From Pseudorhodoplanes sp. (lineage in GTDB: Bacteria; Pseudomonadota; Alphaproteobacteria; Rhizobiales; Xanthobacteraceae): DNA of 64,000 nucleotides. The position numbers and the translations under genes were made by a program. The DNA is taken from the NCBI GenBank assembly GCA_032027085.1, contig JAVSMS010000001.1, positions 272,783-336,782 of the forward strand, given 5' to 3'. Within the stretch, counting starts at the first letter, position 1, and each line of letters starts with the position of its first letter. Shown here piece by piece: positions 7,530-25,702 of the stretch. The notes below the pieces were generated by a model. The model saw nothing but the letters and a program-made list of their open reading frames with translations. It was not told the origin of the DNA and made no database searches.

Positions 7530-7550
7530 TAAGTCTTTTCCGATCACAAG

Positions 7551-7877
7551 ATGCTCGCACTGGCCGTCAATGAGCCAGAAGATTGCTCATTTCGGCCTCG
7601 ACTTCTTCGCGCGGCAGAGCGTGTGTGGTTCCAACAAGGGACCGAGACCGCCATGGACCGCAGCGCGACAGACATCGCCATTCACAGTTTCCTCGTCGAA
7701 ATGCGGAGCCGGCTGTCAGAGGCCGGCAGCATCGCCACAGCGGCAGAGGCCTGTGCAGCGGCCGGCAATCTGGAAAAGGCGGTCGAAGTCGCACTGGACA
7801 TCGAGCAGCTCACCTATGAGGCGAGCCGGCTGCTCGATGCAGCAAGCCTTCTGCAACGGATCAAGCAGCAGGAATAA
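7551..7877 (+). CDS. conserved hypothetical protein (paralog of 54958..55233)
   Basis: The region from MDRSATD (internal Met at 7653) onward aligns with DRSATKALLKQELKD...AAAGEIAELA of the module-2 ORF. The true start is uncertain. Confidence 0.45.
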   Translation: MLALAVNEPEDCSFRPRLLRAAERVWFQQGTETAMDRSATDIAIHSFLVEMRSRLSEAGSIATAAEACAAAGNLEKAVEVALDIEQLTYEASRLLDAASLLQRIKQQE

Positions 7878-7889
7878 CAAGCACCAAGG

Positions 7890-8848: not shown

Positions 8849-10470
8849 CGCGCAAGCCAGTCAGGAGCGCATCCATCAAGACGCTGCGATGTGCCGTTTA
8901 TACCCGTAAATCCACAGAGCACGGACTGGAATTGGAGTTCAATTCGCTGGATGCCCAGCGCGAGGCCTGCGAGGCCTATATCAAGTCGCAAGCCTCGGAA
9001 GGCTGGACCTGCCTGTCCAAGCGCTATGACGACGCGGCCTTCTCCGGCGGCACGCTGGAGCGTCCCGCCCTGCGGCGGCTCCTGAAGGACATCGAGGCAG
9101 GACTCGTCGATGTTGTCGTCGTCTACAAAATCGACCGCCTGACCCGCTCGCTCTCAGATTTTGCGAAACTCGTGGAGATCTTCGACGCGCAATCGATTTC
9201 CTTCGTCGCTGTGACCCAACAGTTCAACACCACGACCTCGATGGGGCGCCTGACGCTCAACATTCTCCTCTCCTTTGCCCAGTTCGAGCGTGAGCTTTCC
9301 TCCGAACGGGTACGCGACAAGGTGGCAGCCTCCCGCAAGAAGGGCAAATGGACCGGCGGGACAGTGCCGCTCGGCTATGACAGCCGCGACAAGAAACTTG
9401 CCGTGAACCCGGCCGAGGCCAAGACCGTGCGCATGATTTTTGAGCGCTATCTTGCCTTGAAGTCGGCTCCAAAGCTTATCGAAGAGCTCGACCGCAAAGG
9501 CGTCGTCACCAAGAAACGTGCGCTCCAGGGCAAGACGGCAGGCAATGTGCCTTTCACTTATGGGTCGCTCGTGTATCTGCTCAAGAACCGCACCTATGTC
9601 GGCGAGGTTGGCCATGACGGCAAATGGTTTGAAGGCGAGCACGAGCCGATTCTGGACCGTGAGCTATTCGCGCGCGCGCAGGAGGTCCTGAAATCCAACG
9701 CTGTCCGGCGCCGAAAACAGCGTGCAGAGACCGGCGCCCTGCTCTCTGGCCTGCTCTACGATGACCGCGGCCATCGCATGAGCCCGAGCTACTCGGTCAA
9801 AAACGGCGTACGCTATCCCTTCTACGTCAGCGCCGCCATCCTAAAGGGACGCAAACGAGAAGCCGGTTCGATCGCCCGCGTCGGCGCACCTCAGATTGAG
9901 ACCCTCGTCATTGCAAGCTTGCGCAAACACCTGCAGCAGCAGGATGATGCAGTCACGTCCCGCACTCTTCTCGAACAATGCGTCGACAGGATCACGATCT
10001 TTCCGGCCAAGATCACAATCAACCTCAAAGCCGACAGCTCGTCTGCAGAGCGAGCAGCCGGCTCCTTTGACATGCCCTGGTCACCCGCCAAGAAGACTGG
10101 TCTTGTCGAGATCAGCGAGCCGAATGATTCATCGCCGCCCTCCCCAAAATCCGAACTTGTTCAAGCCTTGGTGCGCGCCCATGTGTGGCTCGCCCAACTG
10201 AAGAGCGGCACATTCAAATCGATCGAAGACCTCGCCCAGGCGGTGAAAATTCACCCCAAGAACATACGTTTGGGCCTGAAGTTGGCATTCCTTTCGCCGC
10301 AACTGGTCCGTGAAATCCTGCGCGGCGAGCAAGCTCCCGCGATAACCGTAACAAGCCTAGGCAACATTTCTGAGCTTTCCTGGATGGGCCAGGAAGCCGC
10401 ATTGAAATCGCGCAATTCGCACCGCATCATGCGACCCGGGGCGGCTGGGGACCAAGGCCATGTTACTTAG
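8845..10470 (+). CDS. large serine recombinase
   Basis: Resolvase-type catalytic N-terminus (AVYTRKSTEHGLELEFNSLDAQREACEAYI...YKIDRLTRSL) followed by a recombinase domain and a long C-terminus. The start is placed at GTG 8845 (GTGA overlap) by alignment to paralog 56231..57826. The ORF-track start 8683 is an upstream extension that overlaps the DUF2924 gene. Confidence 0.9.
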   Translation: MTRKPVRSASIKTLRCAVYTRKSTEHGLELEFNSLDAQREACEAYIKSQASEGWTCLSKRYDDAAFSGGTLERPALRRLLKDIEAGLVDVVVVYKIDRLTRSLSDFAKLVEIFDAQSISFVAVTQQFNTTTSMGRLTLNILLSFAQFERELSSERVRDKVAASRKKGKWTGGTVPLGYDSRDKKLAVNPAEAKTVRMIFERYLALKSAPKLIEELDRKGVVTKKRALQGKTAGNVPFTYGSLVYLLKNRTYVGEVGHDGKWFEGEHEPILDRELFARAQEVLKSNAVRRRKQRAETGALLSGLLYDDRGHRMSPSYSVKNGVRYPFYVSAAILKGRKREAGSIARVGAPQIETLVIASLRKHLQQQDDAVTSRTLLEQCVDRITIFPAKITINLKADSSSAERAAGSFDMPWSPAKKTGLVEISEPNDSSPPSPKSELVQALVRAHVWLAQLKSGTFKSIEDLAQAVKIHPKNIRLGLKLAFLSPQLVREILRGEQAPAITVTSLGNISELSWMGQEAALKSRNSHRIMRPGAAGDQGHVT

Positions 10471-11941
10471 CAGCGGCGACATTTATCGCGCCTATCGTCC
10501 GAGCGCATGCGACCTTCGCCACTATCTACATTACAAGAAGACGCCAGCAGCCGAACCAGGCGCGTTCGAAGAGGTTATTCGCCGCCTCGGTGACCGACAC
10601 GAGAAGGCGCATCTCGCCACCCTGGAGGATGTCACCGACCTCAGCGAAGGTTCCTTCGAGGAGCGGCGACGTCAGACGCTCGAAGCCATAAGCAACAAGG
10701 CTTCAGTTATCTACCAACCAGTGTTTGCCGCAACAGTCAGACTGGCAGGTCGGGATTGCCAGGTGACTGGCATTCCAGACTTCCTCATCCGGGAAGGCGA
10801 CGGCTATGCCATCCGCGATGTGAAGATGGCGAGGCGCCTGACCGAAGGTGAACATGCAGAAATCTTCTGGCAGCTGCGGCTCTATGGCTTGCTGTTCACC
10901 TTGACGACCGGACAGGCACCGGTGCGGCTCGAAGTATATGGTGGCGCGAGTGAGATCGTCACAATTGATGCCGCTGCTAATGGCACCGTAGAGACAATGC
11001 TGGCTCGGTATGTGGAGGTGATGCTGGGCGAGCGGCCACCCTTCGAGCCGGTGGGATGGACCAAATGCGGCGACTGCGGATACCACGCCACGTGCTGGAA
11101 CGACGCATTAGAGCGTAAGGACGTCGCGCTCGTCCCGAAAATTGACCAGGGTCTCGCCCGCGCTCTGCACGAAGTTGGCGTCAGTACCTATGGCGATTTG
11201 CTGGTCCAATTCGATGAGGCGCGTCTCACGCAATTCCAAAGACCCTGGGGGGCGCGGCAGCAGAAGGTTGGCAAGACGGCGGTCGATATTTTGCGATCCG
11301 CCCGGGCCCTCCAGTCAAATCAATGCATCGCCATCGCTGCGCCGGACATTCCAGCGAGCACAAACTACGTAATGTTTGACCTTGAAGGGCTGCCGCCCCA
11401 CCTGGATGAACTCGAACAGATCTACCTGTGGGGCCTGCAAGTGTTCGGAGACAAACCAGGCACCTTCATGGCGGCGACGGCAGGATTTGGTGCCGAAGGC
11501 GACCGCGAAGGCTGGGAGCAGTTTCTGAGGTGCGCTGCCGCGATCATCGCCGAGCACGGCAATATTCCATTCGTGCACTGGCACCACTACGAGAAAACGA
11601 AGCTGAAATTGTACATCGAACGCTACGGAGACCCTGACGGGATCGCAGCCGCCGTGCTCGCCAACCTGTTTGATCTCTTGCCGGCAACACAGAAGGCTGT
11701 TGCCCTTCCCCTGCCAAGCTACAGCCTGAAAGTGGTTGAGAAATACGTCGGCTTCAAACGCTCGCAGTCTGAATACGGCGGCGACTGGGCAATGGCGAAA
11801 TACATTGAAGCCACTGAGACCGAGGATGAAGCTCTCCGTACAGCAGTGATGGATCAGGTCCTCAAATATAATGAGGAGGATCTGGCCGCCACGTGGGCCG
11901 TGCTATCTTGGCTTCAAGAATTTGGACGCAAGGCCAACTGA
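10460..11941 (+). CDS. TM0106-family RecB-like nuclease (Cas4-like Cys cluster plus RNase H-like C-terminal domain)
   Basis: 493 aa. GIPDFLIRE...IRDVKM (PD-(D/E)XK-like), CGDCGYHATCW cysteine cluster, then YVMFDLEGLP...HWHHYEKT in the C-terminal half. The ATG lies 11 nt inside the recombinase 3' end. Confidence 0.7.
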   Translation: MLLSSGDIYRAYRPSACDLRHYLHYKKTPAAEPGAFEEVIRRLGDRHEKAHLATLEDVTDLSEGSFEERRRQTLEAISNKASVIYQPVFAATVRLAGRDCQVTGIPDFLIREGDGYAIRDVKMARRLTEGEHAEIFWQLRLYGLLFTLTTGQAPVRLEVYGGASEIVTIDAAANGTVETMLARYVEVMLGERPPFEPVGWTKCGDCGYHATCWNDALERKDVALVPKIDQGLARALHEVGVSTYGDLLVQFDEARLTQFQRPWGARQQKVGKTAVDILRSARALQSNQCIAIAAPDIPASTNYVMFDLEGLPPHLDELEQIYLWGLQVFGDKPGTFMAATAGFGAEGDREGWEQFLRCAAAIIAEHGNIPFVHWHHYEKTKLKLYIERYGDPDGIAAAVLANLFDLLPATQKAVALPLPSYSLKVVEKYVGFKRSQSEYGGDWAMAKYIEATETEDEALRTAVMDQVLKYNEEDLAATWAVLSWLQEFGRKAN

Positions 11942-12046: not shown

Positions 12047-13576
12047 TCAAACTGACACGGCGCGCTCGGGAGGGAGGCGAAGGCCCGGACGGTAGGTACC
12101 GTCTTTGCTCCCCTCAAAGTCCCATTCGTAGACGGTCACCGGTCCGATGGCCGGCTGGTTCTGACCGAGAAAGAAGGCGAACGCATTGGGGCCGGCGATG
12201 AACAGGTGGGTCGAAGGGCGCGGCGTGCCCGACCGGGTAATCGTTCGAAGGCGGGTAAGCAACGCTTCGGCCAGCAACACGGCATGATGCCCGCTGTAAA
12301 CGCTGCGGCGCGACGCCGGCATGCGGGCATGCAGGATGCGACCGATTCCAGGAAAGGCTTTCACAAACGTGCGCACGGCCGGGCTCACATCGTGTGCGAG
12401 ACTCACGGCAACCGCAGTGTCGGCTCCCTCCCCGGTCTCCTCGACTTCAAACTCAAAAGCAGGCCAAGCCGGATCAAACGGCAGGTCGTCCGCCGCCCAC
12501 CAGCGCCGCCCGTCGGTGCGCTGTTCAATCTCAACCGTCTTGCCGGACTTCACGTTGAGGATCGCGCCAACGCCAAAAGCGAGAGAAACATGCGCATCTA
12601 GAATTACGCGAAGATGATCGTTCTCGCGAGCGGCCTTAAGCACAAAGGCCTGCAACTCGGGGAAGACGGTAGCATCCCACGCCGCCGCGTCGCGAATGAA
12701 GCGCCCCGCGAAATGCGGCACGAGACTGAGCAGCGTGCCGCAGCGCGCTTCCAGATTGTCGATCGCATGCATGAAGGAACGCACGCCGATGGAGACGGGC
12801 TCACGCTCGTGGTCTTTGTCAAAGAGCCGCTCGGACGCGCACAGGTCGCGGAAAGCTTGGCGGTCGAAGTCATTACGGCCTTGCGCGTGCAGCTTGGTGA
12901 TGAGGTCATCGTAAAAGAAGCCAGCTTCCGACGGAGAAACACGCACCATCCCGACCGCACGCAGCCGATCATTGAGGCGGTCCCGCAGCTCGTGTGCGGA
13001 CTCAACGCGTTGCGTGATGCCAAGCGTTCGCGCAACGCGGCGGAGTTCATCCTCGTCAAGGCCGAGATGCTCGCGCCACGTCTTGCGCAACTGCCCCATC
13101 GCGCTTGCATCCGTCGTGCCGTCAAACAGTCGCTCTAGGTCGAGCGCGTAGGTCTGGGTTAGCAGCGCCCGCATCAAGGGATCGGCGCGGCGCAAACTCC
13201 AGTTGGTGACAAGCTTGAATCTCGCCCCGGTTCCATCGGGCGCGTGCATCACCTGCGCTTCGTGGGCGCGCTGCAGGAACGAATTCGTCTGCGCGTTCGA
13301 AAACGCGGGGTCAATCAAATCGGTGTAGCCGAACTCGCCGGGGCGGACATGCCACTTGCACTGCAGGTGGTCGCGGAGCAGCCGTGCGCCAGTATGATCC
13401 TGCGGCGCACGCGCAGGATCGTACTCGATGAGCACGTCGTCGAACGCCTTTGGGCCGATTTCGTAGGCCACGCGCACCACGCCGCTCGCGGAGTCCAGCA
13501 GCGAGGCAGCGTGCAGCCAGAAAAGGCGGGCTTGGAAATTGTCCCCTTGCTGGCGGGCAATGACGGCCTGGCTCAT
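12047..13576 (-). CDS. cap4: CBASS effector, nuclease-SAVED fusion (Cap4-type)
   Basis: Start taken at MSQAVIARQQGDNFQ (ATG 13574-13576, GAGGGA 6 nt upstream). The N-terminal DUF4297-type nuclease has FDDVLIEY...LQCKWH. The C-terminal SAVED ending is HLFIAGPNAFAFFLGQNQ. It lies 10 nt downstream of the CD-NTase gene. Confidence 0.85.
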   Translation of the reverse strand: MSQAVIARQQGDNFQARLFWLHAASLLDSASGVVRVAYEIGPKAFDDVLIEYDPARAPQDHTGARLLRDHLQCKWHVRPGEFGYTDLIDPAFSNAQTNSFLQRAHEAQVMHAPDGTGARFKLVTNWSLRRADPLMRALLTQTYALDLERLFDGTTDASAMGQLRKTWREHLGLDEDELRRVARTLGITQRVESAHELRDRLNDRLRAVGMVRVSPSEAGFFYDDLITKLHAQGRNDFDRQAFRDLCASERLFDKDHEREPVSIGVRSFMHAIDNLEARCGTLLSLVPHFAGRFIRDAAAWDATVFPELQAFVLKAARENDHLRVILDAHVSLAFGVGAILNVKSGKTVEIEQRTDGRRWWAADDLPFDPAWPAFEFEVEETGEGADTAVAVSLAHDVSPAVRTFVKAFPGIGRILHARMPASRRSVYSGHHAVLLAEALLTRLRTITRSGTPRPSTHLFIAGPNAFAFFLGQNQPAIGPVTVYEWDFEGSKDGTYRPGLRLPPERAVSV

Positions 13577-13586
13577 GCTGTCCCTC

Positions 13587-14465
13587 TCACCGCGTCGGGA
13601 AGTACCGGCCCATAATCTCGCCCCAAAGGGCAAGCGCTTCGCCGGTCTTGCCCTGGGTCTCAAGGCGCATGGCAAGCGATGCGTTTTTCTCCGCCGTGCG
13701 CATCACGGCGATGGCCTTCTGCACGAGATCCGGCGTCATCTGGTCGGAAACGTGCGGCCCGAGCCCGGCGGGGTCCGGCCATGGGCCTGACAGCACCGCC
13801 GGAGCGGCGGCGAAGAAACGCTGCACCTCGCGCGCGTAGGTGGTGAAAGGCGCATCGACAAGGTCGAGGGCCATGACTTCGATCAAGAACGACGGTTTGA
13901 TCGGTTTGTCGGCGGAACGGTTCCAACGCTTCAACATCTTCACGAGCGGGACCCACTTTCCGCCAAGCGCCCTGTTCTTGGCGGTGGACTTCTCCGCGTG
14001 GACCTCGGGATCTGTCTTGATCCACTTTCCGAGGTCGCGGTCCGGGATTTCGTAGCAGTCGCTGAGCTCGAACGCGGGCACCGCGTCGATCGACAGCACC
14101 TTACCCTCCTCGTCCTTGGTGTTCTTCTCGAATTCGACGGTGACCGAGCGCCGGCCGCGGTCGACCGCATCGGCGCCGTACTTGTCCTTCAAGCAATCAT
14201 AGAAGGCGTCGATTATCTCGGCGGGTGGCTTGTCGCGCCACTTCTTCTCGGCGCTGCCGAGCGCAAAGAAGACGTCGACGTCCTTCAGCGGCTTCGTCTT
14301 GGTGTGCCGGTCATAGGATCCGGTGAGGAAATCGCGGTCGACCGCGAACGTGGCGCGGATGCAGTCGCGGACCTCGTTGTGTCGCTTGCTCGCGTTCTTC
14401 GCCTCAGTGTCGCTGAGTTCGAGGCGCTGGCGGAACGTTTCAAAGGCTTCGTTGACGCTGGTCAT
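13587..14465 (-). CDS. CD-NTase (cGAS/DncV-like nucleotidyltransferase)
   Basis: 292 aa from MTSVNEAF. TGSYDRHTKTKPLKDVDVF gives the GS...DxD active site, and SIDAVPAF gives the third Asp. ATGA overlap with the upstream HORMA gene. The longer ORF-track N-terminus overlaps that gene and is Arg/His-rich. Confidence 0.85.
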   Translation of the reverse strand: MTSVNEAFETFRQRLELSDTEAKNASKRHNEVRDCIRATFAVDRDFLTGSYDRHTKTKPLKDVDVFFALGSAEKKWRDKPPAEIIDAFYDCLKDKYGADAVDRGRRSVTVEFEKNTKDEEGKVLSIDAVPAFELSDCYEIPDRDLGKWIKTDPEVHAEKSTAKNRALGGKWVPLVKMLKRWNRSADKPIKPSFLIEVMALDLVDAPFTTYAREVQRFFAAAPAVLSGPWPDPAGLGPHVSDQMTPDLVQKAIAVMRTAEKNASLAMRLETQGKTGEALALWGEIMGRYFPTR

Positions 14466-14959
14466 TTGTAATAGGTCATCGAAGCCATGATGTCGGGGGT
14501 GGCGATCACGGTGCCGGCTTCGCGGGCAGTGAGGCCATTGAGCGAATGGAACGACGTGGTGGTGACGCCCGGAACGTCCTCGCCGCCCGGCGCGAGCAGC
14601 AGAATCCGGTAGACGCATCCGGCCGGCGGCCGCGGCGGCTTGTCGAAGGTCTGCTGGAGAAACTGCTTGTCGACCCACATCTCGTCGACACCGTTGCCGT
14701 CGTAACGGATCGGGAAGTCCCACCGCCCAAGCGCGATCGTGGTGCCAGGCTTGTAGAATTCGATGATGATCTTCTCGAGGTGGCCGGATTGCAGCCACGT
14801 GCGCGCTGCGCGGTCGACCCAATCCGACCACGCGTCAACAAGCTTGGTCGGATCAAGCCCGTAGTGCAGGACAAGAAGCTTGATGAGATTCCGCATCTTG
14901 TCGGAAACGTACGCGGCGGTGTGGGCCCGCGTGTAGGAGGTGACGTAAGTTGAGCTCAT
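14462..14959 (-). CDS. cap7: bacterial HORMA domain protein (CBASS type III regulator)
   Basis: 165 aa from MSSTYVTSYTRAHTAAYVSDKMRNLIKLLVLHYGLDP...LEKIIIEFYKPGT...RWDFPIRYDG. This matches my recollection of characterised CBASS HORMA sequences. ATGA overlaps on both sides. Confidence 0.75.
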   Translation of the reverse strand: MSSTYVTSYTRAHTAAYVSDKMRNLIKLLVLHYGLDPTKLVDAWSDWVDRAARTWLQSGHLEKIIIEFYKPGTTIALGRWDFPIRYDGNGVDEMWVDKQFLQQTFDKPPRPPAGCVYRILLLAPGGEDVPGVTTTSFHSLNGLTAREAGTVIATPDIMASMTYYK

Positions 14960-15429
14960 GGCTGGTCCAGGACTCCCCAGTTGATCGCAAGCGGCTGGGC
15001 CTGCGCCGCGCTTTCGGCCCGCTCGTCCTCGTCGTGGGGCGGCGACGCGACATCGTGCACCGAGATCCGCGGGGCGCGGGTCGTCAGCGTGTTGTTCATC
15101 CACGTCACGTCGTCAGTGTCCGACGGCGCGGTCACGCTCCAGCCGTTGCCGCCGGTCGGATTCCAGGTGAGCGCGGCAACGTCCTTGCCCGCTTCCATCG
15201 CGGCTTCGTTGTAGAGGCAGTAGACAACGAGGCGCGGCCCGCTCCCCTTCACCACGATCGGGCATGTGGCCGGATGTTCGTCGGCGATCAACGACTGCAT
15301 GACGCTGGCCGCCGCCGCCAGCGTGGCGGCGTCGACCGAGCCCGTGCCGGTGATGAGGTCGATGATGGCCTGCCACGTCTCGGCCGCCGTGCGCACCGGG
15401 ATCGAAGCGATATCGCGCCGAACCTTCAT
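14956..15429 (-). CDS. small CBASS accessory protein, possibly the second HORMA-type protein (Cap8/HORMA3-like)
   Basis: 157 aa, translationally coupled (ATGA) to the TRIP13-like gene upstream and the HORMA gene downstream. The assignment rests on size and position only; I see no diagnostic motif. Confidence 0.4.
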   Translation of the reverse strand: MKVRRDIASIPVRTAAETWQAIIDLITGTGSVDAATLAAAASVMQSLIADEHPATCPIVVKGSGPRLVVYCLYNEAAMEAGKDVAALTWNPTGGNGWSVTAPSDTDDVTWMNNTLTTRAPRISVHDVASPPHDEDERAESAAQAQPLAINWGVLDQP

Positions 15430-16301
15430 GCCGCTTTCTCCTCGATACGGCTGTTCTCGGCCGCAAGCTTGAGCGTCGCGAGAACGTGCTCGGCCTTCAG
15501 CTTGTTGAGGTCCTTCGCCGTCTCGATGGTAGATGCGGCGGCGGAGATGATCGCCTTGCGCAACCGGCGGCCGTCCATGCCGTCTGAGGCGCGCACGAAC
15601 GCCGCCATCTGCGCCTTGAGGTCAGAGACGCGTGGCCACTCCTTGGCGAGCTGCTGCAGCGCGTCAGCGATGATCGCCTGGCGTGCGGCGCCGTCCGGCA
15701 AGCCCACATCCTCGATCCAATCCGCACGCGACAGCAACGCCCGGTCGACCGCTTTCGGGAAATTGGTGGTCGCGATCAACAGCGTGTTGCGATGCGTGCG
15801 GGAGAGAAGATCGATGCCGGACAAAGCCGCATCGGTTGCGCGGTGGGCGTCAATCGGGTTCGCCTCAAGGCTCATGCGCTGCCGGTCGGCCGCCAGCGCC
15901 TCGACCTCGTCGAAGAGGATGATCGCCGGGTGCGCCATCGCGTGCTCCGGGATCGTCTGCTGGAACAGCTTCGTCACCTCCTTCTGGCTCTTGCCGTGCG
16001 AGGAGCTGCCGAGGGCGTGCGGGTCGATCTGGAGGAACTTCACCTTCTTCGGCGCAAGCGCCTTGGCGACTTCGTTCGCAAGACCACGGGCGAGCGTTGT
16101 CTTGCCGGTGCCGGGAGGGCCCGACAACACGATGAGGCCGTGCACGGGCATAACCTCGAACGGAAAGCGCTGCCTGAGCTGGAGCGAGAGCAGCGCCTGC
16201 GCCACGAGGCGGGTCCGCACTTGCGGGTCGATTTTGATGGCGTCCCAGGCCGCGGCGAAGTCGTCCCGCGGCAGGAACTGTTGATCGCTGATAGCCTCCA
16301 C
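15426..16301 (-). CDS. cap6: TRIP13/Pch2-like AAA+ ATPase (CBASS type III regulator)
   Basis: 291 aa. Walker A LSGPPGTGKTTLARG, Walker B IILFDEVEAL. It is the first gene of the five-gene minus-strand operon. Confidence 0.85.
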   Translation of the reverse strand: MEAISDQQFLPRDDFAAAWDAIKIDPQVRTRLVAQALLSLQLRQRFPFEVMPVHGLIVLSGPPGTGKTTLARGLANEVAKALAPKKVKFLQIDPHALGSSSHGKSQKEVTKLFQQTIPEHAMAHPAIILFDEVEALAADRQRMSLEANPIDAHRATDAALSGIDLLSRTHRNTLLIATTNFPKAVDRALLSRADWIEDVGLPDGAARQAIIADALQQLAKEWPRVSDLKAQMAAFVRASDGMDGRRLRKAIISAAASTIETAKDLNKLKAEHVLATLKLAAENSRIEEKAA

Positions 16302-16531: not shown

Positions 16532-16553
16532 TGTGATTTGCGAGGAGAATGGC

Positions 16554-16874
16554 GTGACCGTCCTAGGGGACCGAATACGAGAACTCAGAAAGAAGAAGGG
16601 CTATACCCTTGAAAAACTTGCTGAATTGACGGATTCCAGCAAGAGCTACATCTGGGAACTGGAAAACAAGCAGCCCGCCCGCCCCTCCGCCGACAAGATC
16701 GCGAAAATTGCGCGGGTGTTGGGTGTCACGCCGGAATACCTCGTTGATCCCGAGGAAACGAACGTCGCCGAAGCGACCGACGAGGCCTTCTATCGCAAGT
16801 ATCGCCGGCTCGATCCCACGACAAAAGAGAAGTTCCGCCGGATGATCGATGTGTGGGACGACGACGATAAATGA
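16554..16874 (+). CDS. capH: XRE-family HTH regulator, CapH-like
   Basis: GTG start at 16554 preceded by GAGGAG (16543-16548). LGDRIRELRKKKGYTLEKLAELTDSSKSYIWELENKQ HTH. Divergent from the CBASS operon and ATGA-coupled to an ImmA/IrrE peptidase gene. Confidence 0.7.
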   Translation: MTVLGDRIRELRKKKGYTLEKLAELTDSSKSYIWELENKQPARPSADKIAKIARVLGVTPEYLVDPEETNVAEATDEAFYRKYRRLDPTTKEKFRRMIDVWDDDDK

Positions 16875-17773
16875 CCGAGCCGGTCTACCCCATGCGGTGG
16901 GCAAACGATCTCACCCTCCTCTTGAACGCCGTGCTGGGGGCGGACCGGTTTCCCGTGAAGGTGCCGGACATCGCTGCCGAGTTTTCGCGGCAGCGCTTTC
17001 CAGATGACCCGATCACGCTGATTAAGGGCGACGTCCTTCCTAACTTCGATGGCGCTCTCGTGCGGGCGCCTGCGGGGAAGAAAGGCTGGGGCATTCTCTA
17101 CAATTCGGCGATCGGCTCGCCGGGACGTGTCAACTTCACGCTTGGCCATGAATTCGGCCACTACTTGATGCACCGCCAAGCGTATCCGAACGGCATTCGA
17201 TGTGGCGATCAGGATGTCGTCCGGTGGGATTCAGAATACGGCCAGCTCGAACACCAAGCAAATGTGTTCTCAGCGACGTTGCTGATGCCGTTGGACGATT
17301 TCCGCCGTCAAGTGCCCGAGCGGCATAAAGCCAATCTCGGCGAGTTGTCCGCGTGCGCCGAGCGCTACCGCGTGTCGTTGATAGCGGCTATCCTTCGGTG
17401 GCTGGAATACACTGAGTGCCGCGCGGTGCTTGTCGTCTCCCGCGAGGGTTACATTCTCTGGTCAAAACCCAGCAAGTCCGCACTACGCACCGGCGCGTTT
17501 TTCCGCACCTCCGCAAGCCCGGTTCAAATCCCCTCACGATCACTGGCGGCACGGCAAGACCGACTGGTCGACGGTCGCCGCGGCGTTGACATGCCTGCCG
17601 GCATTTGGTTCAGCGAAGAAGTACGGGAAATGACCGTGTTCGCAGATCAATACGACTTCGCGGTCACTCTGCTTATGCTGCCCAGCGATTACCTCCCGCG
17701 ATTGCAGGATGAGCAGAACATCGAAGACACTTACGATCGCTTCGTGAAGAGCGGGAAATTGCCGGTCAGGTAG
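16871..17773 (+). CDS. capP: ImmA/IrrE-family zinc metallopeptidase, CapP-like
   Basis: 300 aa with an HEFGHYLMH zinc-binding motif. Paired with the upstream HTH gene next to CBASS. Confidence 0.75.
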   Translation: MTEPVYPMRWANDLTLLLNAVLGADRFPVKVPDIAAEFSRQRFPDDPITLIKGDVLPNFDGALVRAPAGKKGWGILYNSAIGSPGRVNFTLGHEFGHYLMHRQAYPNGIRCGDQDVVRWDSEYGQLEHQANVFSATLLMPLDDFRRQVPERHKANLGELSACAERYRVSLIAAILRWLEYTECRAVLVVSREGYILWSKPSKSALRTGAFFRTSASPVQIPSRSLAARQDRLVDGRRGVDMPAGIWFSEEVREMTVFADQYDFAVTLLMLPSDYLPRLQDEQNIEDTYDRFVKSGKLPVR

Positions 17774-17950: not shown

Positions 17951-19183
17951 ATGAAAAACCTCGTCGTCTGCTGCGATGGAACGGGCAATGAAGTCAGCGA
18001 AAACATCTCGAATGTCCTGAAGCTCTACCGGGTGCTGCGGAAAACCGGCAAAACGAATCCCAAGCAAATTGTCTTCTACGACCCAGGCGTCGGCACCCTT
18101 GCGCGTCCTGATCCTTGGATAAAATTCCGCCAGGATGCGGTCATGGTGCTCGGATTGATGACCGGTTACGGTCTCGATGAGCGTGTCCTCGCGGCATACA
18201 CGTTCTTGATAGACAACTACGACGAAGGTGACGACATCTACTTGTTTGGCTTCAGCCGCGGCGCCTACACCGTCCGCATGCTGGCCGGTCTGATTCACAA
18301 AGTCGGACTGCTCTCTCCGCCGCAGAAGAATTTGGCGGAGGCGGCCCTTGGCTCTTACAAACAGTCGATCGAATTTGATCAATCCGGCGTCGCGGACACC
18401 GAAGCATCCGAAGTCGGCCCCATGTCCCGGGACGATCGCGCGGCCCAATTTGCACGCATAGTTTCGGTACGGTGGCCAACAATAAAATTCCTAGGCGTTT
18501 GGGATACCGTAGCGAGCGTCATCGTTCCCCGACCTGACCGGTTCTACACTTTCAGCCTACAAGAGCTGCCGCATACTCGGCGCAATCCAAGTGTGCGCAT
18601 ATTTCGCCAGGCGATCGCGCTGGATGAACGCCGGCGTATGTTTCGACTGCACGGTTGGGATGAGAAGCAGACCTTTATGCCCAACCGGTTCAGCAAGACC
18701 AACAATAGCGAGCCGCAGGACATAAAACAGGTGTGGTTCGCGGGCGTTCACGCGGACATAGGCGGCGGATATCTAGAGGCAGAAAGCGGTCTATCAAAAT
18801 TCCCATTACTATGGATGATCGGCGAAGCCGTAGCCCAGGGCCTCGCAGTCAACCCGCAGACGGTCAATCAGCTCGCTTGGGGCGTTCAGAGGCGCGGCAG
18901 CCCCTTCTCGTACGTGGCACCGGATAGCGGGCGCGATCCGCATCAATCTCTGACCTCCGCCTGGCGGCCGCTGGAATGGCTTCCGAAATCGGACAAGTAC
19001 AAAGAATGGAAGCGTCTGACATCGTGGTTTGGCCATTACATCCCGAGCGGCGAACCCCGGCCGGTTGAAGACGACGCCTGGATCCATGAATCCGTGTTCA
19101 GGCGCATCGAAGCCGTACCCCATTATCGCCCCGTCAACATGCCGTCGACGCACCGCATCGTACCCATGCTAACCAAGACCTGA
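17951..19183 (+). CDS. DUF2235 alpha/beta hydrolase (Tle1-like phospholipase fold)
   Basis: 410 aa. N-terminal MKNLVVCCDGTGNE, nucleophile elbow LFGFSRGAYTVRMLAGLI, and VWFAGVHADIGGGY. All three are hallmark blocks of DUF2235. Confidence 0.85.
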   Translation: MKNLVVCCDGTGNEVSENISNVLKLYRVLRKTGKTNPKQIVFYDPGVGTLARPDPWIKFRQDAVMVLGLMTGYGLDERVLAAYTFLIDNYDEGDDIYLFGFSRGAYTVRMLAGLIHKVGLLSPPQKNLAEAALGSYKQSIEFDQSGVADTEASEVGPMSRDDRAAQFARIVSVRWPTIKFLGVWDTVASVIVPRPDRFYTFSLQELPHTRRNPSVRIFRQAIALDERRRMFRLHGWDEKQTFMPNRFSKTNNSEPQDIKQVWFAGVHADIGGGYLEAESGLSKFPLLWMIGEAVAQGLAVNPQTVNQLAWGVQRRGSPFSYVAPDSGRDPHQSLTSAWRPLEWLPKSDKYKEWKRLTSWFGHYIPSGEPRPVEDDAWIHESVFRRIEAVPHYRPVNMPSTHRIVPMLTKT

Positions 19184-19212
19184 GCGCCGACTACGAGACT
19201 ACGGTCAGGTTC

Positions 19213-22200
19213 TTGAACGGGCTATTCCGTTTCGGCATGCTCGACCAGCATAGGGTGGGGCAAATGGGGCTCAAGGATCTTGAACGCGACGAACGGACGT
19301 CGATCGACGCCAACGTCGTAAAGCTGGTCAATATACGCAGGTTCACGGCGATCCTGCACCATCTCGAAGCTTTCAAATTCTGGAATCCGCCCGACAGGCG
19401 GAAACCGCTCTGGGAGCACCAGCGCGCGGCGGTCGAGACCGTCACCGCCTATCTGGCCGCCGATCCGCATCTACCGCACCGCCTGACATTGAGGGAGGCA
19501 GCACTGCTGAAGCTGCCGACCGGTACGGGCAAGTCCGGCGTTGTCGCTGTCCTGGCCAGATGCTTGCCCGACGTCAAGCGGACGCTCGTGCTCACGCCGC
19601 GGAAGTCGCTCGTCGCGCAGATGAAAGACGACGTACGCTTCCGCTTCTGGAAGCACCTTCAATATCCGGTCAAGGACGGCGAGACGTTCGTGGCAGACGC
19701 AGCGATGTTCGGCAACGCGATGGACACAGCGTACGTCGAGACGCTGTTGCCGAGCAAGGTCGGTCAGATACTCCAGCACGTGCCCGCGGCCGACAAGGCG
19801 GTATTAGTCGGCACCTACCAGGCTCTCGATGCCATCCGTCGAAGGACGAAGGATCCGCGGCCCAACAGGGCCGCCGCGCGCAAGGCCGCCGAAGAACTTC
19901 TCGATCTGCTACGGCAGTTCGATCTCATCCTCGTCGACGAGGGTCACTACGAACCCGCAATCTCCTGGTCGAAGGGCGTTCGCGAGTTGAACCGGCCCAC
20001 CGTTCTGCTGAGCGCGACGCCCTACCGGAACGACTTCAAGTCGTTCCGGGTCAGCGGCCGCTTCGTGTTCAACTATCCGCATCACGATGCAGTACGCGCG
20101 CACGTTATACGGGACGTCGAAGTGGTAGCTGCGAAAGCGCCGCAGGGGGGATCGGCGACAGAACGATTCGTTTCGGCGCTCGCCGGCACCCTGCCCACCC
20201 TAAAAAAGAAGGCATCAGCGTGGACGGCCACGCCGAAGATCATGGTGCGCGCCGACGACCTCGAAACGTTGTATGATCTACAGAAGCTCATCGACGAGGA
20301 ATTTGGCACGCAGTCAGTGGTTGTTCACGATCGCGCCACTGGTTCGAAGCGCTTTCCTCGCCGGTTCAACGACGTACGCCGCGCGTTTCGCGACGCGCCG
20401 GATGCCGAGTTCTGGCTCCATCAATTCAAGCTGATGGAGGGCGTGGACGATCCGGACTTCATCGTGGCGGCCATCTTCGATCCGCCCAGCAACGGACGTC
20501 AGTTGGTGCAGCAGATTGGGCGAATCGTACGCAATAGTCCGGGACGCCATCGGGTGCAGACCGCCTGGGTCGTCGCCACCGATAAGAACGCCGCCAAGAT
20601 CGAGGGGACGTGGGAGCGCTACAAGGAATACGAGAAGTATTGCGCGAAGGAGACCGACCACATCGTGGCGAACGAAATTGCGCTACCTGATCGCGTTCTC
20701 GAACTCATGCCTCAAAATCAATACATCGGCGGCGAATTCAGAAAGCGGTTCGACAGCAGCGGTGCGCTGTCCGCCGACGATCTGCAACTCCTCACGAGTG
20801 CCGCGGTCTTCGAATGGGAGAGGTCTCAACGCGCCATCGAGGAATTGAAGGAGGCCTTCGAGGACGCGATCATGGAAGAGGACCGCTTTCGCGTCGTTCC
20901 GATCGAGGGACTGCCGCCGGGCTGCGTCGGATACAGCTACTACGCGTGGCGGAATTCGCCGCTGCTGATCGACAAGTTCTTCTCCGAATGGAAACTGGGC
21001 GTGTTCATCGCCGTCCAAGAGGGCGATCTCATGCTGGTCCAGGACACGGAAGGTGTGGTGCTCGACCCGAGCGCCTTGGGATTGAAACCCGCATCGCGGA
21101 ATCTGATGCAGCGCGCCTTCCCCGAAGACTCCCGACGGCAGCCGTCGAAGTTGACCAGGATGGCGTTTGCCTCTCTGGACATGTCCGACAAGGCTATCCG
21201 CACGATGTCGATGCGAACACGCTCGTTCGAGACAACATTCACGGATCTTCTCGACCCGCACCTCGTCCCCACCGCCGCGGCGGGCTTCGTGGCTGGCAGG
21301 GGCCGATACGTGGGATTCGCCACCGCGCGCTTCCGCGACTCAAACGACCGGTTGCCGCTGTACGAATACATCGACTGGACACGGGCGGTCGCGCGCAAGC
21401 TGAGGACGACTGCCGACGGCAGTCCCGTCTTCGGCCGTTACGCGCTGATACGCGATAACATCACAGAGCATGAGGCCCAGCCGGTGACAATCCTCCTGAA
21501 CCTTTCGCGCGACGACCTGCTCGAAGATACGCCGACCGGATCCGAGGCCCGCCGGCTGGCGGACGACCCGGACATCGATCACGACGACCTTTGCGCCGAC
21601 GTCGATGCGGACGGAAACTTCTCGATCAAGGTGCTCGGTAAGCGGATGGACTGCACAGTGTCCTACAATCCCAACTCCGAGCTCTACCGTTTCCTCAGCG
21701 ACGACTTAAACGAGCTGTTCCGCGCAAGGCAGCGGAAAGACCGCGCCCAGGCGCCGACCGCGAGCCAGCGCATCGCCACGCAGCAAAGCTTTCGGATCAT
21801 GGTGACCGCGCCGGGCGTCGTCTACGCCGAGAAGAAATTCTTCGAACCGCGGATAACGCTACGTCAGCCAGATGGCAGCATTCCGATCCTGGACGACGTG
21901 CACACCGTGCCGATCCTCGGCAACGTAAAGAGCGAAAAGGGCGAAGCTTTCTTCGCTAACCGGGCGCGATGGCGAAGGGAATCGGTATTTGGCGTCGTCG
22001 AAGCGATCTGCCGCGAAAGGAACGCCAAGCACAGGCGCAGCAATTGGAAGGCGCTCGGCGAAGCGCTGGGCCGCTATCCGCTCGTAATCTGTGACGACGA
22101 TAGCAAGGAGATCGCGGATTTTATCGCGGTCGACCCCGCGAACAGGCGAGTCGCATTTCTACACGGCAAGGCGCTCAAGGACGGCGTCGGCCAATATCAC

Positions 22201-22593
22201 GTCGACACACTCCAGGAAGTCGGGCGTCAGGCAGCGGCTTCTCTGGCGTTCCTCACGCGGACGCCGCCGCCCCAAGGCTGGGAGCCGCGGCGCTGGGGAC
22301 AGAACGTCCAAGCCAACCGGAGGACGCTAAACGGACGCAGCCGTACATTCAAGAACGCAAACGGACTGACGCCGCAGCAGATCACCGATACGCTCCGGAC
22401 CGCGTGCGGTAATGCCAGTTACACACGCGAAGTCTGGATCGTCGCCGGGAACATGCTCGACCGCGAAATCGTCCGCAACGCCATCGCGCGGAACAATCTG
22501 AACAACCGCTTGTGGCAGTTCCTAATCCATTGGGAAGGGCTTCGTACGGCTTGCGGCAGAGCCGGCGCGCATCTCTCGCTTTTTTGCCATTGA
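19213..22593 (+). CDS. SF2 (ResIII/DEAD-like) helicase with a ~600-aa uncharacterised C-terminal extension
   Basis: 1126 aa. Walker A LKLPTGTGKSG (nt 19513-19536), DEGH box LILVDEGHY, LLSATPYRND, and motif VI-like QQIGRIVRN. The C-terminus has a possible nuclease-like block VICDDDSKEIADFIAVDPANRRVAFLHGKA (about nt 22081-22172). The start lies 30 nt after the DUF2235 stop; alternative Met at 19264. Confidence 0.85.
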   Translation: MNGLFRFGMLDQHRVGQMGLKDLERDERTSIDANVVKLVNIRRFTAILHHLEAFKFWNPPDRRKPLWEHQRAAVETVTAYLAADPHLPHRLTLREAALLKLPTGTGKSGVVAVLARCLPDVKRTLVLTPRKSLVAQMKDDVRFRFWKHLQYPVKDGETFVADAAMFGNAMDTAYVETLLPSKVGQILQHVPAADKAVLVGTYQALDAIRRRTKDPRPNRAAARKAAEELLDLLRQFDLILVDEGHYEPAISWSKGVRELNRPTVLLSATPYRNDFKSFRVSGRFVFNYPHHDAVRAHVIRDVEVVAAKAPQGGSATERFVSALAGTLPTLKKKASAWTATPKIMVRADDLETLYDLQKLIDEEFGTQSVVVHDRATGSKRFPRRFNDVRRAFRDAPDAEFWLHQFKLMEGVDDPDFIVAAIFDPPSNGRQLVQQIGRIVRNSPGRHRVQTAWVVATDKNAAKIEGTWERYKEYEKYCAKETDHIVANEIALPDRVLELMPQNQYIGGEFRKRFDSSGALSADDLQLLTSAAVFEWERSQRAIEELKEAFEDAIMEEDRFRVVPIEGLPPGCVGYSYYAWRNSPLLIDKFFSEWKLGVFIAVQEGDLMLVQDTEGVVLDPSALGLKPASRNLMQRAFPEDSRRQPSKLTRMAFASLDMSDKAIRTMSMRTRSFETTFTDLLDPHLVPTAAAGFVAGRGRYVGFATARFRDSNDRLPLYEYIDWTRAVARKLRTTADGSPVFGRYALIRDNITEHEAQPVTILLNLSRDDLLEDTPTGSEARRLADDPDIDHDDLCADVDADGNFSIKVLGKRMDCTVSYNPNSELYRFLSDDLNELFRARQRKDRAQAPTASQRIATQQSFRIMVTAPGVVYAEKKFFEPRITLRQPDGSIPILDDVHTVPILGNVKSEKGEAFFANRARWRRESVFGVVEAICRERNAKHRRSNWKALGEALGRYPLVICDDDSKEIADFIAVDPANRRVAFLHGKALKDGVGQYHVDTLQEVGRQAAASLAFLTRTPPPQGWEPRRWGQNVQANRRTLNGRSRTFKNANGLTPQQITDTLRTACGNASYTREVWIVAGNMLDREIVRNAIARNNLNNRLWQFLIHWEGLRTACGRAGAHLSLFCH

Positions 22594-23181: not shown

Positions 23182-23736
23182 ATGAGGAGAGGACAGATGG
23201 CGAGCGAACAACGACCGTGGAAGCGTCAGCGCGAGGCCTTCTGGCGAGCGCATCATGAGGCGTGGAAGTGTAGCGACTTGAATCAGCGGCAATATTGCGA
23301 GTTTCACGGCTTGCCGCAGAAGGCATTCGAGAACTGGCGCCAGATGTTCAGGCTCGAACCGGAGCCCCCACAGCGCAAGTTGCTCTATCGGTGCCGGCCA
23401 ATAAGACCTCCCCTAAGTCCGCCCGTTAGTCCTCCCCTAATTCCGGGGGCTTATCCCTCCTCGCAGCTGGCGGCTCCCATTGTTCAGCGGCCGCGCGAGG
23501 GGCACCGGCGCCGGTTCAGCGACGCAGATAAGCGATGGATTCTCCAAGAGGCAGCCCGACCTGCGGCGAGTGCCGCGGAGGTGGCGCGCCGGTATGGCAT
23601 CGATCAGCGTCTTCTACGTCGATGGAAAAATGAACTGACGGAGGCAACACCGACCTTCGCCACGGTACAGATCACCGATGCGGCTGCGCCGACTGCTCCG
23701 ACTGCTCCGACCACTGACGAGGAGGCCCTGTCATGA
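23182..23736 (+). CDS. tnpA: IS66 Orf1 (TnpA accessory protein)
   Basis: First ORF of the IS66 unit. Probable start at MASEQRPW (23197). Overlaps tnpB by ATGA. Confidence 0.75.
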   Translation: MRRGQMASEQRPWKRQREAFWRAHHEAWKCSDLNQRQYCEFHGLPQKAFENWRQMFRLEPEPPQRKLLYRCRPIRPPLSPPVSPPLIPGAYPSSQLAAPIVQRPREGHRRRFSDADKRWILQEAARPAASAAEVARRYGIDQRLLRRWKNELTEATPTFATVQITDAAAPTAPTAPTTDEEALS

Positions 23737-24089
23737 CGTTGCTTCCTCCGAACGTGAAGGTGCACCTGGCGTTGAGCTACATAGACATGCGCAAGGGCAT
23801 CGACGGACTCGCCATGTTGGTGCAAGGCGTCCTGCGCCAGGATCCGTTCACCGGCCACCTGTTCGCCTTCCGGGGCCGCAGCCGCGCCAACCTCATCAAG
23901 ATTGTGTACTGGGACGGGACCGGCTTTTGTCTGTTCACCAAACGGCTCGAGCACGGCGTCTTCCTGTGGCCTCCGAGCATCGAGCCCGGCAAGACGCTGT
24001 CGCTGACCTCGGCGCAGTTATCGCTACTGATCGATGGTGTCGATTGGCGGGCGCCGGAACAGCGATGGCGGCCGGCGGTGGCGGGATGA
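23733..24089 (+). CDS. tnpB: IS66 Orf2 (TnpB accessory protein)
   Basis: 118 aa. VHLALSYIDMRKGIDGLAMLVQGVLRQDPFTGHLFAFRGRSRANLIKIVYWDGTGFCLFTKRLE is the canonical IS66 TnpB sequence pattern. Confidence 0.9.
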   Translation: MTLLPPNVKVHLALSYIDMRKGIDGLAMLVQGVLRQDPFTGHLFAFRGRSRANLIKIVYWDGTGFCLFTKRLEHGVFLWPPSIEPGKTLSLTSAQLSLLIDGVDWRAPEQRWRPAVAG

Positions 24090-24127
24090 TCGCTGCGGCG
24101 GATTGACTCAACGGCACGTCGCTTGGT

Positions 24128-25702
24128 GTGGCGGTCTGCGAGTCAGGATATATTCCGCTCATGGACATCGATCTTGCCGCTCTGCCGGACGATGTGGAGA
24201 CGCTGCAGAATCTGGTGCGCTCGCTCGCGGCCGAGCGCGCCAGCCTCAGCGAAGCAAAGGCCGAGATCGAACGGCTCAACCTCATCATCAAGAAGCTGCA
24301 GCGTAGTCAATTCGGCCGGCGCGCCGAGCGGCTCGATGACGATCAACTGCAGCTCGGCCTCGAAGACATCAACACCGACGTTGCGCGCGTCGAAGCCAGC
24401 CTTCCGCTTCCAACAGCCGAGACCGAGACGCCGAAGGCACAGTGCGAGCGGCCGAGCCTTCCGGCGCATCTCGCCCGCGAGCACGTTCATCTCGATATCG
24501 AACATGAGGCCTGTCCCTGCTGTGGCGGCCCGCTTCATCTGATCGGCGAGACTGTCAGCGAGATGCTCGATCATGTGCCGGCGCGGCTGCGGGTGATCCG
24601 CATCCGTCGGCCGCGCTATGGCTGCCGGGCCTGCGGGACTATCCACCAGGCACCGGCTCCGGAGCGGCCCATCGCCAAGGGTCTGGCCACGCCTGGCCTC
24701 CTGGCTCACGTGCTGGTCTCCAAGTATTGCGACCACCTCCCTCTGTATCGGCAGAGCCAGATCTTCGCCCGGCAGGGTGTCGAGCTCGACCGCTCGACGC
24801 TGGCCAATTGGGTCGGTGGCGCCGTCTGGTGGCTGGAGCCGCTGCAGGCGCGGCTCGCCGAGCATGTGTTCGCCTCGCAGACGCTGTTCGCCGACGACAC
24901 GCCGATCCCGGTGCTCGATCCTGGCCGAGGTCGCACCAAGACCGGACGGCTCTGGGTCTATGCCCGTGATGATCGGCCCTGGAACGGACCTGAGCCACCG
25001 GCGGCGGTTTACTTCTACAGTCCGGATCGGAGGGCCGAACGTCCCGCGTCCCATCTCAAAGGATTCCGCGGCACTCTGCAGGTCGACGGCTATGCCGGCT
25101 TTGAGCGGCTGACCGACCGCGGTGACATCGTGCTGGCGGCTTGCTGGGCCCATGCCCGGCGCAAGTTCTACGAGGTGCACGAGGCGACCGGCTCACCGAT
25201 CGCGGCCGAAGCGCTCAGCCGTATCGCCGAACTCTACGCGATCGAAGCAAGCATCCGGGGCCAAGCGGCCCAGGCAAGACAAACCAAACGCCAGGTCAAG
25301 TCGTCGCCGCTGGTCCGAGCCATGAAGATCTGGTTCGAGGCCCAACTCAGTCGGATCCCGCCGAAAGGCGCTCTGGCCGATGCGATCCGTTATGCGCTGG
25401 CCCGATGGGAAGCTCTCTGCCGATTCCTCGGTGACGGCCGCATCGAGCTCGACAACAACACGGTCGAACGCGCCATCCGCCCCATCGCGCTCGGCCGCAA
25501 GAACCATCTGTTCGCCGGCTCCGATGGCGGGGCAGTCCGCTGGGCGGTCATCGCCTCCCTCCTGGCAACCGCGAAGCTCAACGATGTCGAGCCATTCGCC
25601 TACCTCAAGGACGTGCTGGAACGCATGTCCAACGGCCATCCCATGAGCCGGCTCGATGACCTGCTGCCGTGGAACTGGGGCCCTCTAGCCACCGCAGCCT
25701 GA
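24128..25702 (+). CDS. tnpC: IS66-family transposase (TnpC)
   Basis: 524 aa. Leucine-zipper-like N-terminus, CxxC zinc finger (CPCCGGPLHLIGE), and the DDE region with LFADDTPIPVL...LQVDGYAGF. The start may be MDIDLAAL at 24161. Confidence 0.9.
   Translation: MAVCESGYIPLMDIDLAALPDDVETLQNLVRSLAAERASLSEAKAEIERLNLIIKKLQRSQFGRRAERLDDDQLQLGLEDINTDVARVEASLPLPTAETETPKAQCERPSLPAHLAREHVHLDIEHEACPCCGGPLHLIGETVSEMLDHVPARLRVIRIRRPRYGCRACGTIHQAPAPERPIAKGLATPGLLAHVLVSKYCDHLPLYRQSQIFARQGVELDRSTLANWVGGAVWWLEPLQARLAEHVFASQTLFADDTPIPVLDPGRGRTKTGRLWVYARDDRPWNGPEPPAAVYFYSPDRRAERPASHLKGFRGTLQVDGYAGFERLTDRGDIVLAACWAHARRKFYEVHEATGSPIAAEALSRIAELYAIEASIRGQAAQARQTKRQVKSSPLVRAMKIWFEAQLSRIPPKGALADAIRYALARWEALCRFLGDGRIELDNNTVERAIRPIALGRKNHLFAGSDGGAVRWAVIASLLATAKLNDVEPFAYLKDVLERMSNGHPMSRLDDLLPWNWGPLATAA

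Follow-up and report, generated by a model that had tools for sequence, protein, structure and literature searches.

In type III restriction–modification (R-M) systems, the Res subunit contains a ResIII helicase followed by a C-terminal endonuclease domain. Hachiman consists of two proteins, the HamA nuclease and the HamB helicase, and Mokosh combines an MkoA-type RNA helicase with a PLD nuclease. CapV, a patatin-fold phospholipase, is the sole effector of its operon of the cyclic-oligonucleotide-based anti-phage signalling system (CBASS). Hna of Sinorhizobium meliloti is a stand-alone abortive-infection gene, whose single 845-aa product unites a DinG/XPD-like SF2 helicase with a C-terminal PD-(D/E)XK nuclease (PMC13381803). 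Here we describe a computational analysis of two neighbouring genes in a 64,000-nt stretch of Pseudorhodoplanes sp. DNA (contig JAVSMS010000001.1), the whole of which is called the window. The first encodes a DUF2235 (Tle1-like) alpha/beta hydrolase and the second a superfamily 2 (SF2) helicase with a C-terminal nuclease-like module. A preliminary description, made from the sequence alone, had taken them for a dedicated two-gene module with the logic of Hachiman and Mokosh. The related loci and contigs that were compared with the window are labelled by L-numbers.

With about even confidence we favour a different reading, in which the helicase works on its own as a helicase/nuclease-like defence protein and the hydrolase is a satellite that gathers beside nuclease-type defences, the two not forming an obligate two-gene system. 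They are read as separate cargo because they usually occur apart, their orientations vary and close orthologues lack the partner. A profile built from 12 helicase homologues retrieved 80 loci from one-genome-per-species contigs of Proteobacteria, Bacteroidota, Actinobacteria, Planctomycetota and one archaeon. DUF2235 was present in only two of these, L072 and L045, and in 3/85 helicase-ascertained loci overall, leaving 82/85 without it. All-against-all clustering of the flanking open reading frames (ORFs) of the 80 loci revealed no conserved neighbour of the helicase. Close helicase relatives without DUF2235 were found in L082 (65% identity), L083 (63%), L089 (72%) and L090 (71%), next to Mokosh-like, TIR, patatin, nSTAND or prophage-like genes. 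In L081, where the helicase is 81% identical to that of the window, DUF2235 follows the SAVED gene of a CBASS operon at a distance of 63 nt. The relative orientation of the two genes is co-directional in the window, convergent in L081 and divergent in L072, and a common operon is therefore not possible in the latter two. The dedicated module was not supported by this genome survey, since DUF2235 orthologues of 79-83% identity also occur without the helicase, and an obligate two-gene operon was rejected. Neither gene had a close relative among the IMG/VR viral contigs, and near-identical DNA was not found on plasmids.

The same picture was obtained from the side of the hydrolase. Orthologues 79-83% identical to the window protein follow the SAVED gene of a type III CBASS by 29 nt in L114/115/116 and L120. 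In L117 the orthologue lies between an ABC-3C system and Gabija, in L121 after Hachiman-like genes, in L118/L092 after a split helicase next to Hachiman, and in L122 among metabolic genes. Relatives at 52-69% identity have mixed neighbours, mostly non-defence genes. That near-identical DUF2235 orthologues keep such varied company fits poorly with a dedicated complex.

The helicase core was as first described. Motifs I (PTGTGKS), II (DEGH), III (SATP) and VI (QQIGRIVR) are present, their residues being 97-100% conserved in 76 family members, and Pfam confirmed the ResIII/DEAD-like core by matching ResIII (PF04851) at residues 66-272 (E 1.8e-15) as well as DEAD. The best profile matches among solved structures were UvsW, RadD, UvrB and HsdR. 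Past about residue 470 Pfam returned nothing, and the sole defence-model match of this C-terminal half, rightly called unfamiliar in the preliminary description, was the PADLOC candidate PDC-S71 (PDLC05077; E 1.2e-21, protein residues 644-1092, profile positions 130-549 of 589). The same model matched the helicases of L072 (E 4.6e-32) and L045 (E 3.3e-19). At E<=0.001 the C-terminal half matched 517 library proteins, which are representatives of 50%-identity clusters; among the 150 best representatives listed, nearly all full-length ones are ~1000-1200 aa long with a helicase in front.

A block reminiscent of PD-(D/E)XK nucleases had been pointed out in this half, and the block quoted as VICDDDSKEIADFIAVD...VAFLHGKA is present in the translation. 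In the AlphaFold2 model of residues 480-1109, which has a predicted local distance difference test (pLDDT) score of 81, the last ~190 residues fold as alpha-beta-beta-beta-alpha, and the strands carry the invariant acidic, His and Lys residues. The signature of this terminal domain comprises CDD (960-962), E966, D969, H984-x-K986 and Q1006 in the numbering of a longer, 1126-aa reading of the gene, from which 17 is subtracted for the 1109-aa protein. Across 76 members of the window family, called family A (25-100% identity), conservation of these residues is 93-100%. The model suggests a domain compatible with a PD-(D/E)XK-type site in which His takes the place of the usual acid. Matches were weak: HSDR_N_2 reached E 0.18 as a hidden Markov model (HMM), below significance, HincII and CdiA-CT appeared in Foldseek at E 0.07-0.8, and a Pfam search of the final 230 aa of several family members produced noise only, even at the permissive cutoff of E<=10. 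The structure search of BFVD with the C-terminal half gave one uncharacterised match at E 5e-4, plus weak RdgC-like matches. Thus the topology and the invariant D/H/K residues fit the proposed nuclease, but structure and HMM matches to such enzymes were all non-significant.

In the mechanism that we propose, the helicase would be a self-sufficient single polypeptide in which an SF2 (ResIII-type) ATP-dependent translocase is joined to a module of ~630 aa that ends in a putative restriction-endonuclease-like domain with the signature DD-E-D...HxK...Q. It would track along foreign or aberrant DNA and cut or degrade it, resembling Hna or a type III Res subunit without methylase. A short motif containing CATGCT was observed at 19225-19245, ~25-40 nt before the start codon of the helicase. 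Although the upstream genes differ, four of six aligned homologues share it, including L081, L089 and L090, and it may act as a promoter or operator specific to the helicase.

For the hydrolase, the hallmarks listed earlier (CCDGTGN, GFSRGA and HADIGGGY) are all in the translation, in agreement with the match to PF09994 (T6SS_Tle1-like_cat), which covers residues 2-291 (E 4.8e-84). The candidate catalytic triad consists of Ser102 in GFSRG, Asp185 in VWDTV and His267 in HADIGGGY, and all three motifs are invariant across 45 DUF2235 orthologues. No family could be assigned to the C-terminal ~120 aa, Pfam yielding PF09994 alone. PADLOC, NCBIfam and the sequence search of PDB gave zero matches for this protein, and its AlphaFold2 model was poor (pLDDT 42) because the alignment held only 70-83% identical sequences. 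A hydrophobic stretch was not seen at the N-terminus (MKNLVVCCDG...) on inspection by eye, no signal-peptide or transmembrane predictor having been run, and the protein is most likely cytoplasmic. Genes of a type VI secretion system (T6SS; VgrG, PAAR, Hcp) or a Tli immunity gene were not recognised among the annotated window genes or in the related loci. With its Ser-Asp-His signature intact, DUF2235 could serve as a cytoplasmic add-on effector of abortive infection that acts on membrane lipids or esters. It would have been recruited repeatedly beside CBASS with Cap4, Cap5 or NucC, beside this helicase superfamily, Hachiman-like genes and Gabija. The helicase and the hydrolase would be linked loosely if at all, for example by a shared trigger or by CapH/CapP-driven transcription, rather than in a dedicated complex.

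Helicases of a second family also accompany DUF2235. The helicases at loci on plasmids of Roseovarius THAF9, Methylocystis parvus and Agrobacterium vitis are ~1100-aa DEAD/DEAH proteins, here called family B, which are distant relatives of family A: an HMM of the 76 family-A members matches them at E ~1e-27 in the N-terminal core and E ~1e-6 in the C-terminal core. In M. parvus the helicase is followed after 1 kb by DUF2235, an AAA ATPase and a hypothetical gene, while in A. vitis helicase and DUF2235 are convergent with one gene between them. The split helicase of L118 (326 aa + 653 aa) aligns to family B over its whole length. Such a split version, a 326-357-aa ResIII gene plus a 653-aa gene divided in the same way, was observed at L118 3857-6786 and L092 4764-7786, directly upstream of DUF2235 and beside Hachiman. 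On Phaeobacter plasmids, a stand-alone 622-aa protein encoded 65 nt downstream of DUF2235 matches the C-terminal domain (E 9e-17). The signature DD-x3-E-x2-D[FI] ... HxK ... Q is common to family A, family B, the split version and this stand-alone protein. Among 73 plasmid records with family-B helicases, DUF2235 is nearby in three plasmid types only; the Klebsiella and E. coli copies lie alone between insertion sequence (IS) elements. In a separate observation, DUF2235 of the clades at 39-55% identity belongs to a conserved trio, whose other members are an AAA ATPase (415-465 aa) and a hypothetical protein of ~280 aa (L126 6995-10538; L128 6995-10347; L131 5995-9486; L135 3722-7101), joined in L126 and L128 by an 825-aa HD-domain protein. 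This trio may be a separate uncharacterised system.

Several results weigh against treating the two genes as separate cargo or the helicase as a nuclease. A helicase-superfamily gene is adjacent, that is, within 3 kb, in 5 of the 22 independent DUF2235-ascertained loci with usable context (L118/L092, L127, L130, L131 and L134), which suggests that the adjacency is commoner than expected for unrelated cargo. On the Roseovarius plasmid, the helicase is followed by DUF2235 across an operon-like junction of 13 nt. The trio of CBASS, DUF2235 and helicase persists despite exchange of its parts: the CD-NTase of L081 is 72% identical to that of L072, yet its helicase is the one resembling the window's, and the helicase of L072 is merely 25% identical to the window's. 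Furthermore, Foldseek of the C-terminal-half model against PDB gave nothing significant (best E 0.024), which leaves the nuclease fold without a structural match. A facultative helicase-plus-effector system was therefore weighed, in which the helicase or its DD-E-D...HxK...Q domain would sense phage nucleic acid and activate DUF2235 as a second, membrane-directed effector; most superfamily helicases would act alone and some would have acquired the hydrolase. DUF2235 proteins of 37-100% identity indeed adjoin four architectures of one superfamily, namely fused family A (window, L081, L072, L045), fused family B (L130 with a 13-nt gap, L131, L134), split family B (L118/L092) and the stand-alone 622-aa C-domain protein in Phaeobacter, and in eight loci DUF2235 is co-directional with, and <=215 nt from, an NTPase or helicase-related gene. 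Nevertheless, ~95% of the helicases lack DUF2235, 80%-identical DUF2235 orthologues live in other contexts, L081 and L072 exclude a common operon, and other DUF2235 clades keep their own operon partners (AAA + hypothetical protein; 616-aa + MBL-fold protein). We regard the facultative system as possible but doubtful. What stands of the proposed pairing is its recurrence across deep divergence, including the Roseovarius junction; it is not obligate, and the link between DUF2235 and helicase is probably at most loose.

The neighbourhood of CBASS suggests another alternative, that DUF2235 is an accessory or second effector of the neighbouring CBASS, possibly controlled by CapH/CapP, with the helicase an unrelated neighbour. 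DUF2235 flanks CBASS units in ten arrangements (window, L081, L072, L114/L120, L091, L045 and four plasmid or genome cases): it is convergent with capP on plasmid 2 of Nitrobacter hamburgensis, follows the HNH effector of a CBASS in Rhizobium CIAT894, lies beside type II CBASS in Phaeobacter and beside type III CBASS with CapW in R. brockwellii, and is near a SAVED gene in L045. CBASS was found within 3 kb in 5/22 DUF2235 loci. Counting the short contig L091, the adjacency amounts to 6/23 DUF2235-ascertained loci versus 1/82 helicase loci without DUF2235 (Fisher p = 4e-4). Each of these operons, however, already possesses a Cap4-, Cap5- or NucC-like nuclease effector, a cyclic-oligonucleotide sensor domain was not recognised in DUF2235 by Pfam or PADLOC, whose CBASS effector models also miss it, orthologues 79-81% identical have no CBASS nearby, and no literature linking DUF2235 with CBASS was found. 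This role is unlikely in our judgement. Less likely still, and in fact highly improbable, is that the adjacency is a by-product of the small cargo pool at one mobile-element hotspot and that one or both genes are non-defence genes; DUF2235 could then be an orphan toxin or lipid-metabolism esterase and the helicase a repair or element-maintenance enzyme. Both genes do recur in the same family of serine-recombinase elements, the backbone found in the window also standing beside DUF2235 or helicase in L045, L089, L092/L118, L096, L117 and L121, with at least one backbone gene in 11/86 helicase loci. A restricted cargo pool at this hotspot can therefore explain part of the co-occurrence, and the 52-69% identical relatives of DUF2235 and the orthologue in L122 sit among non-defence genes. 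On the other hand, known defence systems make up the overwhelming majority of what surrounds both genes (CBASS, Mokosh-like, Hachiman, Gabija, type I R-M, a multi-ubiquitin operon, TIR and nSTAND genes), and a T6SS or Tli-type immunity context was not seen. The autonomous helicase with a satellite hydrolase thus remains the reading we prefer. A bolder proposal would make this DUF2235 subfamily an unrecognised class of intracellular anti-phage effectors, added to nuclease-based immunity and activated by CBASS nucleases and DD-E-D...HxK...Q helicases or downstream of them; helicase and hydrolase would then cooperate in the window, possibly under DNA-damage-responsive CapH/CapP control. We put it forward tentatively, as rather improbable.

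In the arrangement described as typical, CapH/CapP are encoded on the strand opposite to the CBASS core and upstream of it (bioRxiv 10.1101/2022.04.27.489752), and capH-capP in the window conform to it. As had been noticed before, both genes under study are downstream of capH-capP and co-directional with them; the measured distance from the end of capP to the start of DUF2235 is 177 nt. A terminator-like or sigma-70-like site was not found in this gap or in the 80-nt gap between DUF2235 and the helicase by a scan that performs at chance level, and inverted repeats in the intergenic gaps were no more numerous than in shuffled sequence, and no operator was found. From gene order, we infer that shared DNA-damage-responsive control of both genes by CapH/CapP is possible. 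HTH-M78 regulators are repeatedly found near family-A helicases, a fused one lying directly upstream in L025 and L080. In L081, a small helix-turn-helix (HTH) gene (weak matches to Pfam HTH_31/HTH_3) is divergent from the helicase, and the gene beside it encodes not a peptidase but an NADH:quinone oxidoreductase/antiporter-type membrane protein.

Some further neighbours of the helicase recur. A three-gene unit of capH, capP and an SbcB/ExoI-like exonuclease (PADLOC RTasSbcB, E 3e-99) was observed near it at L001 13367-15784, L016 3744-5995, L048 4605-6866 and L072 6453-8742; in L016 and L048 a multi-ubiquitin/ThiF (6e-type) operon, whose end lies directly in front of the helicase, is divergent from this unit. 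A type I HsdR-HsdM pair precedes the helicase by 10 nt in an uncultured Bordetella contig (L001 5476-13360), an arrangement that looks like a single operon. A pair of a ~600-aa protein and a metallo-beta-lactamase (MBL)-fold protein (PADLOC LmuA-like, E 2e-19) adjoins the helicase in L041, L045, L047, L055 and L083. The coordinates of this pair are L045 16178-19280, L083 11338-14879, L129 9097-13639, L133 2375-5894 and L134 3940-6956. Its ~600-aa protein is fused to an S8 peptidase in L129. The pair lies directly upstream of a short-clade DUF2235 in L045 and, by gene size and record annotation only, in L133 and L134. In L023, ORFs predicted in the interval from the helicase to Cap5 were discarded as spurious by composition.

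The features of the window are collected in Table 1. Both ORFs of the preliminary description are real and on the same strand, the longer helicase ORF (19213-22593) opening with TTG. A 1109-aa database copy of the helicase (P0001) and five relatives start at an aligned ATG, at 19264, and read MG[LF]KDL; this ATG is most likely the true start. The gap after DUF2235 is most likely 80 nt and not the 30 nt first given, because the start codon is aligned at 19264 in six homologues. PADLOC and Pfam confirmed the neighbouring type III CBASS and capH-capP, and the setting in mobile-element cargo was borne out by the serine recombinase upstream and IS66 downstream.

Table 1. Features of the locus (window coordinates).
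Feature	Position	Strand	Basis or remark
DUF2235 / Tle1-like alpha/beta hydrolase gene, 410 aa	17951-19183	+	ORF, PF09994
Helicase gene with C-terminal nuclease-like module, 1109 aa	19264-22593	+	ATG start preferred
SF2 helicase core	19264-20700	+	Pfam ResIII, DEAD; motifs I, II, III, VI
Helicase C-terminal half, 630 aa, without Pfam family	20701-22590	+	Homologous to PADLOC candidate PDC-S71
Terminal nuclease-like domain, alpha-beta-beta-beta-alpha	22018-22590	+	Secondary structure of model, conservation
capH	16533-16874	+	PADLOC E 9e-32; Pfam HTH_3
capP	16871-17773	+	PADLOC E 1e-67; Pfam Peptidase_M78
Type III CBASS core, complete	12047-16301	-	Pfam, PADLOC, NCBIfam
CBASS Trip13-like AAA (first in transcription order)	15426-16301	-	
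CBASS Cap8 (second)	14956-15429	-	
CBASS HORMA2 (third)	14462-14959	-	
CBASS CD-NTase (fourth)	13587-14465	-	
CBASS SAVED-endonuclease, Cap4-like (fifth)	12047-13576	-	
Large serine recombinase of integrative-element backbone	8683-10470	+	Pfam Resolvase, Recombinase; backbone homology to L045, L117, L118
DUF3489	8148-8318		Directly upstream of serine recombinase
DUF2924	8378-8839		Directly upstream of serine recombinase
IS66 (TnpA, TnpB, TnpC), downstream island boundary after helicase	23197-25702	+	

The window contains two copies of one integrative-element backbone, at 1839-10470 and 50532-57826, with cargo after each. Its genes are ParB-methylase, DUF5681, terminase-like, DUF3489, DUF2924 and the large serine recombinase; the terminase-like gene of the first copy (3604-5955) is broken into three pieces. 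A 493-aa protein encoded at 10460-11941, which overlaps the stop of the recombinase, combines a Cas4/RecB-like PD-(D/E)XK domain with an RNaseH-like domain, and its gene is kept at the same position in the island-sharing contigs L084-L088. The cargo of the second copy (58007-62442, minus strand) is another defence-like cluster, encoding a 726-aa WYL-TerB-RNaseT-BRCT protein, a 167-aa ORF, a DUF4411 protein and a 398-aa HTH-Peptidase_M78 fusion.

If the helicase protects against phage, a function would be gained for the widespread family represented by the 517 library matches, which at present is touched only by a PADLOC candidate model, and whose sister family B is carried on 73 plasmids, including those of Klebsiella, E. 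coli, Bacillus and Streptomyces. If DUF2235 protects, a fold so far familiar solely from secreted T6SS toxins would enter intracellular immunity, as a recurrent extra gene added to CBASS operons. For annotation, DUF2235 and the helicase should not be called as one system. That DUF2235 adjoins CBASS and these helicases offers a concrete lead that can be tested.

As to named systems, PADLOC, NCBIfam and Pfam gave none for the pair, in accordance with the preliminary description; NCBIfam (June 2026) holds no equivalog and returned sub-threshold helicase-motif matches only. The literature contained nothing relevant on PDC-S71, nor on DUF2235 with CBASS, SAVED, Tle1 or phage defence. PDC-S71 itself is a candidate single-gene model of 589 positions without helicase, to which the window protein adds an N-terminal one. 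The likeness to Hachiman lies in the combination of a helicase with a PD-(D/E)XK-like nuclease, but no DUF1837/HamA was found among the scanned window genes and the similarity to HamB is marginal (E 0.16 against PDB; PADLOC 2e-5 for L072 only). For Mokosh, neither a PADLOC model match nor a PLD domain was found in either protein, so the kinship with these two systems does not extend to membership. The hydrolase shares with T6SS Tle1 the PF09994 catalytic domain with its GxSxG, D and H motifs, but sits in defence islands without recognised T6SS or immunity genes. Like CapV, it is a predicted lipase-fold enzyme encoded beside a CD-NTase operon; in contrast to CapV, it is an alpha/beta hydrolase next to operons that already have nuclease effectors.

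Two systems come closer to the helicase. With the type III Res subunit it shares a ResIII core and a C-terminal endonuclease-like domain of comparable size, but a Mod methyltransferase or specificity partner is lacking in the window and at most related loci: there is no methyltransferase within the island (10.4-23 kb) and no conserved methylase neighbour across the 80 loci. Like Hna, the window helicase also occurs stand-alone, although its nuclease part is only suggested. It differs from Hna in its length of 1109 aa, its ResIII/UvsW/RadD-like core, the ~400 extra residues between helicase and nuclease-like domain and a catalytic motif HxK rather than (D/E)xK. Searches of PADLOC, NCBIfam and PDB sequences returned no Hna match, and that of PDB no DinG match either, the presence of Hna entries in these collections being unconfirmed, so the distinction rests on architecture. 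Judged in this way, the pair falls outside the named families, and the closest mechanistic analogues are Hna and the Res-type helicase-nucleases.

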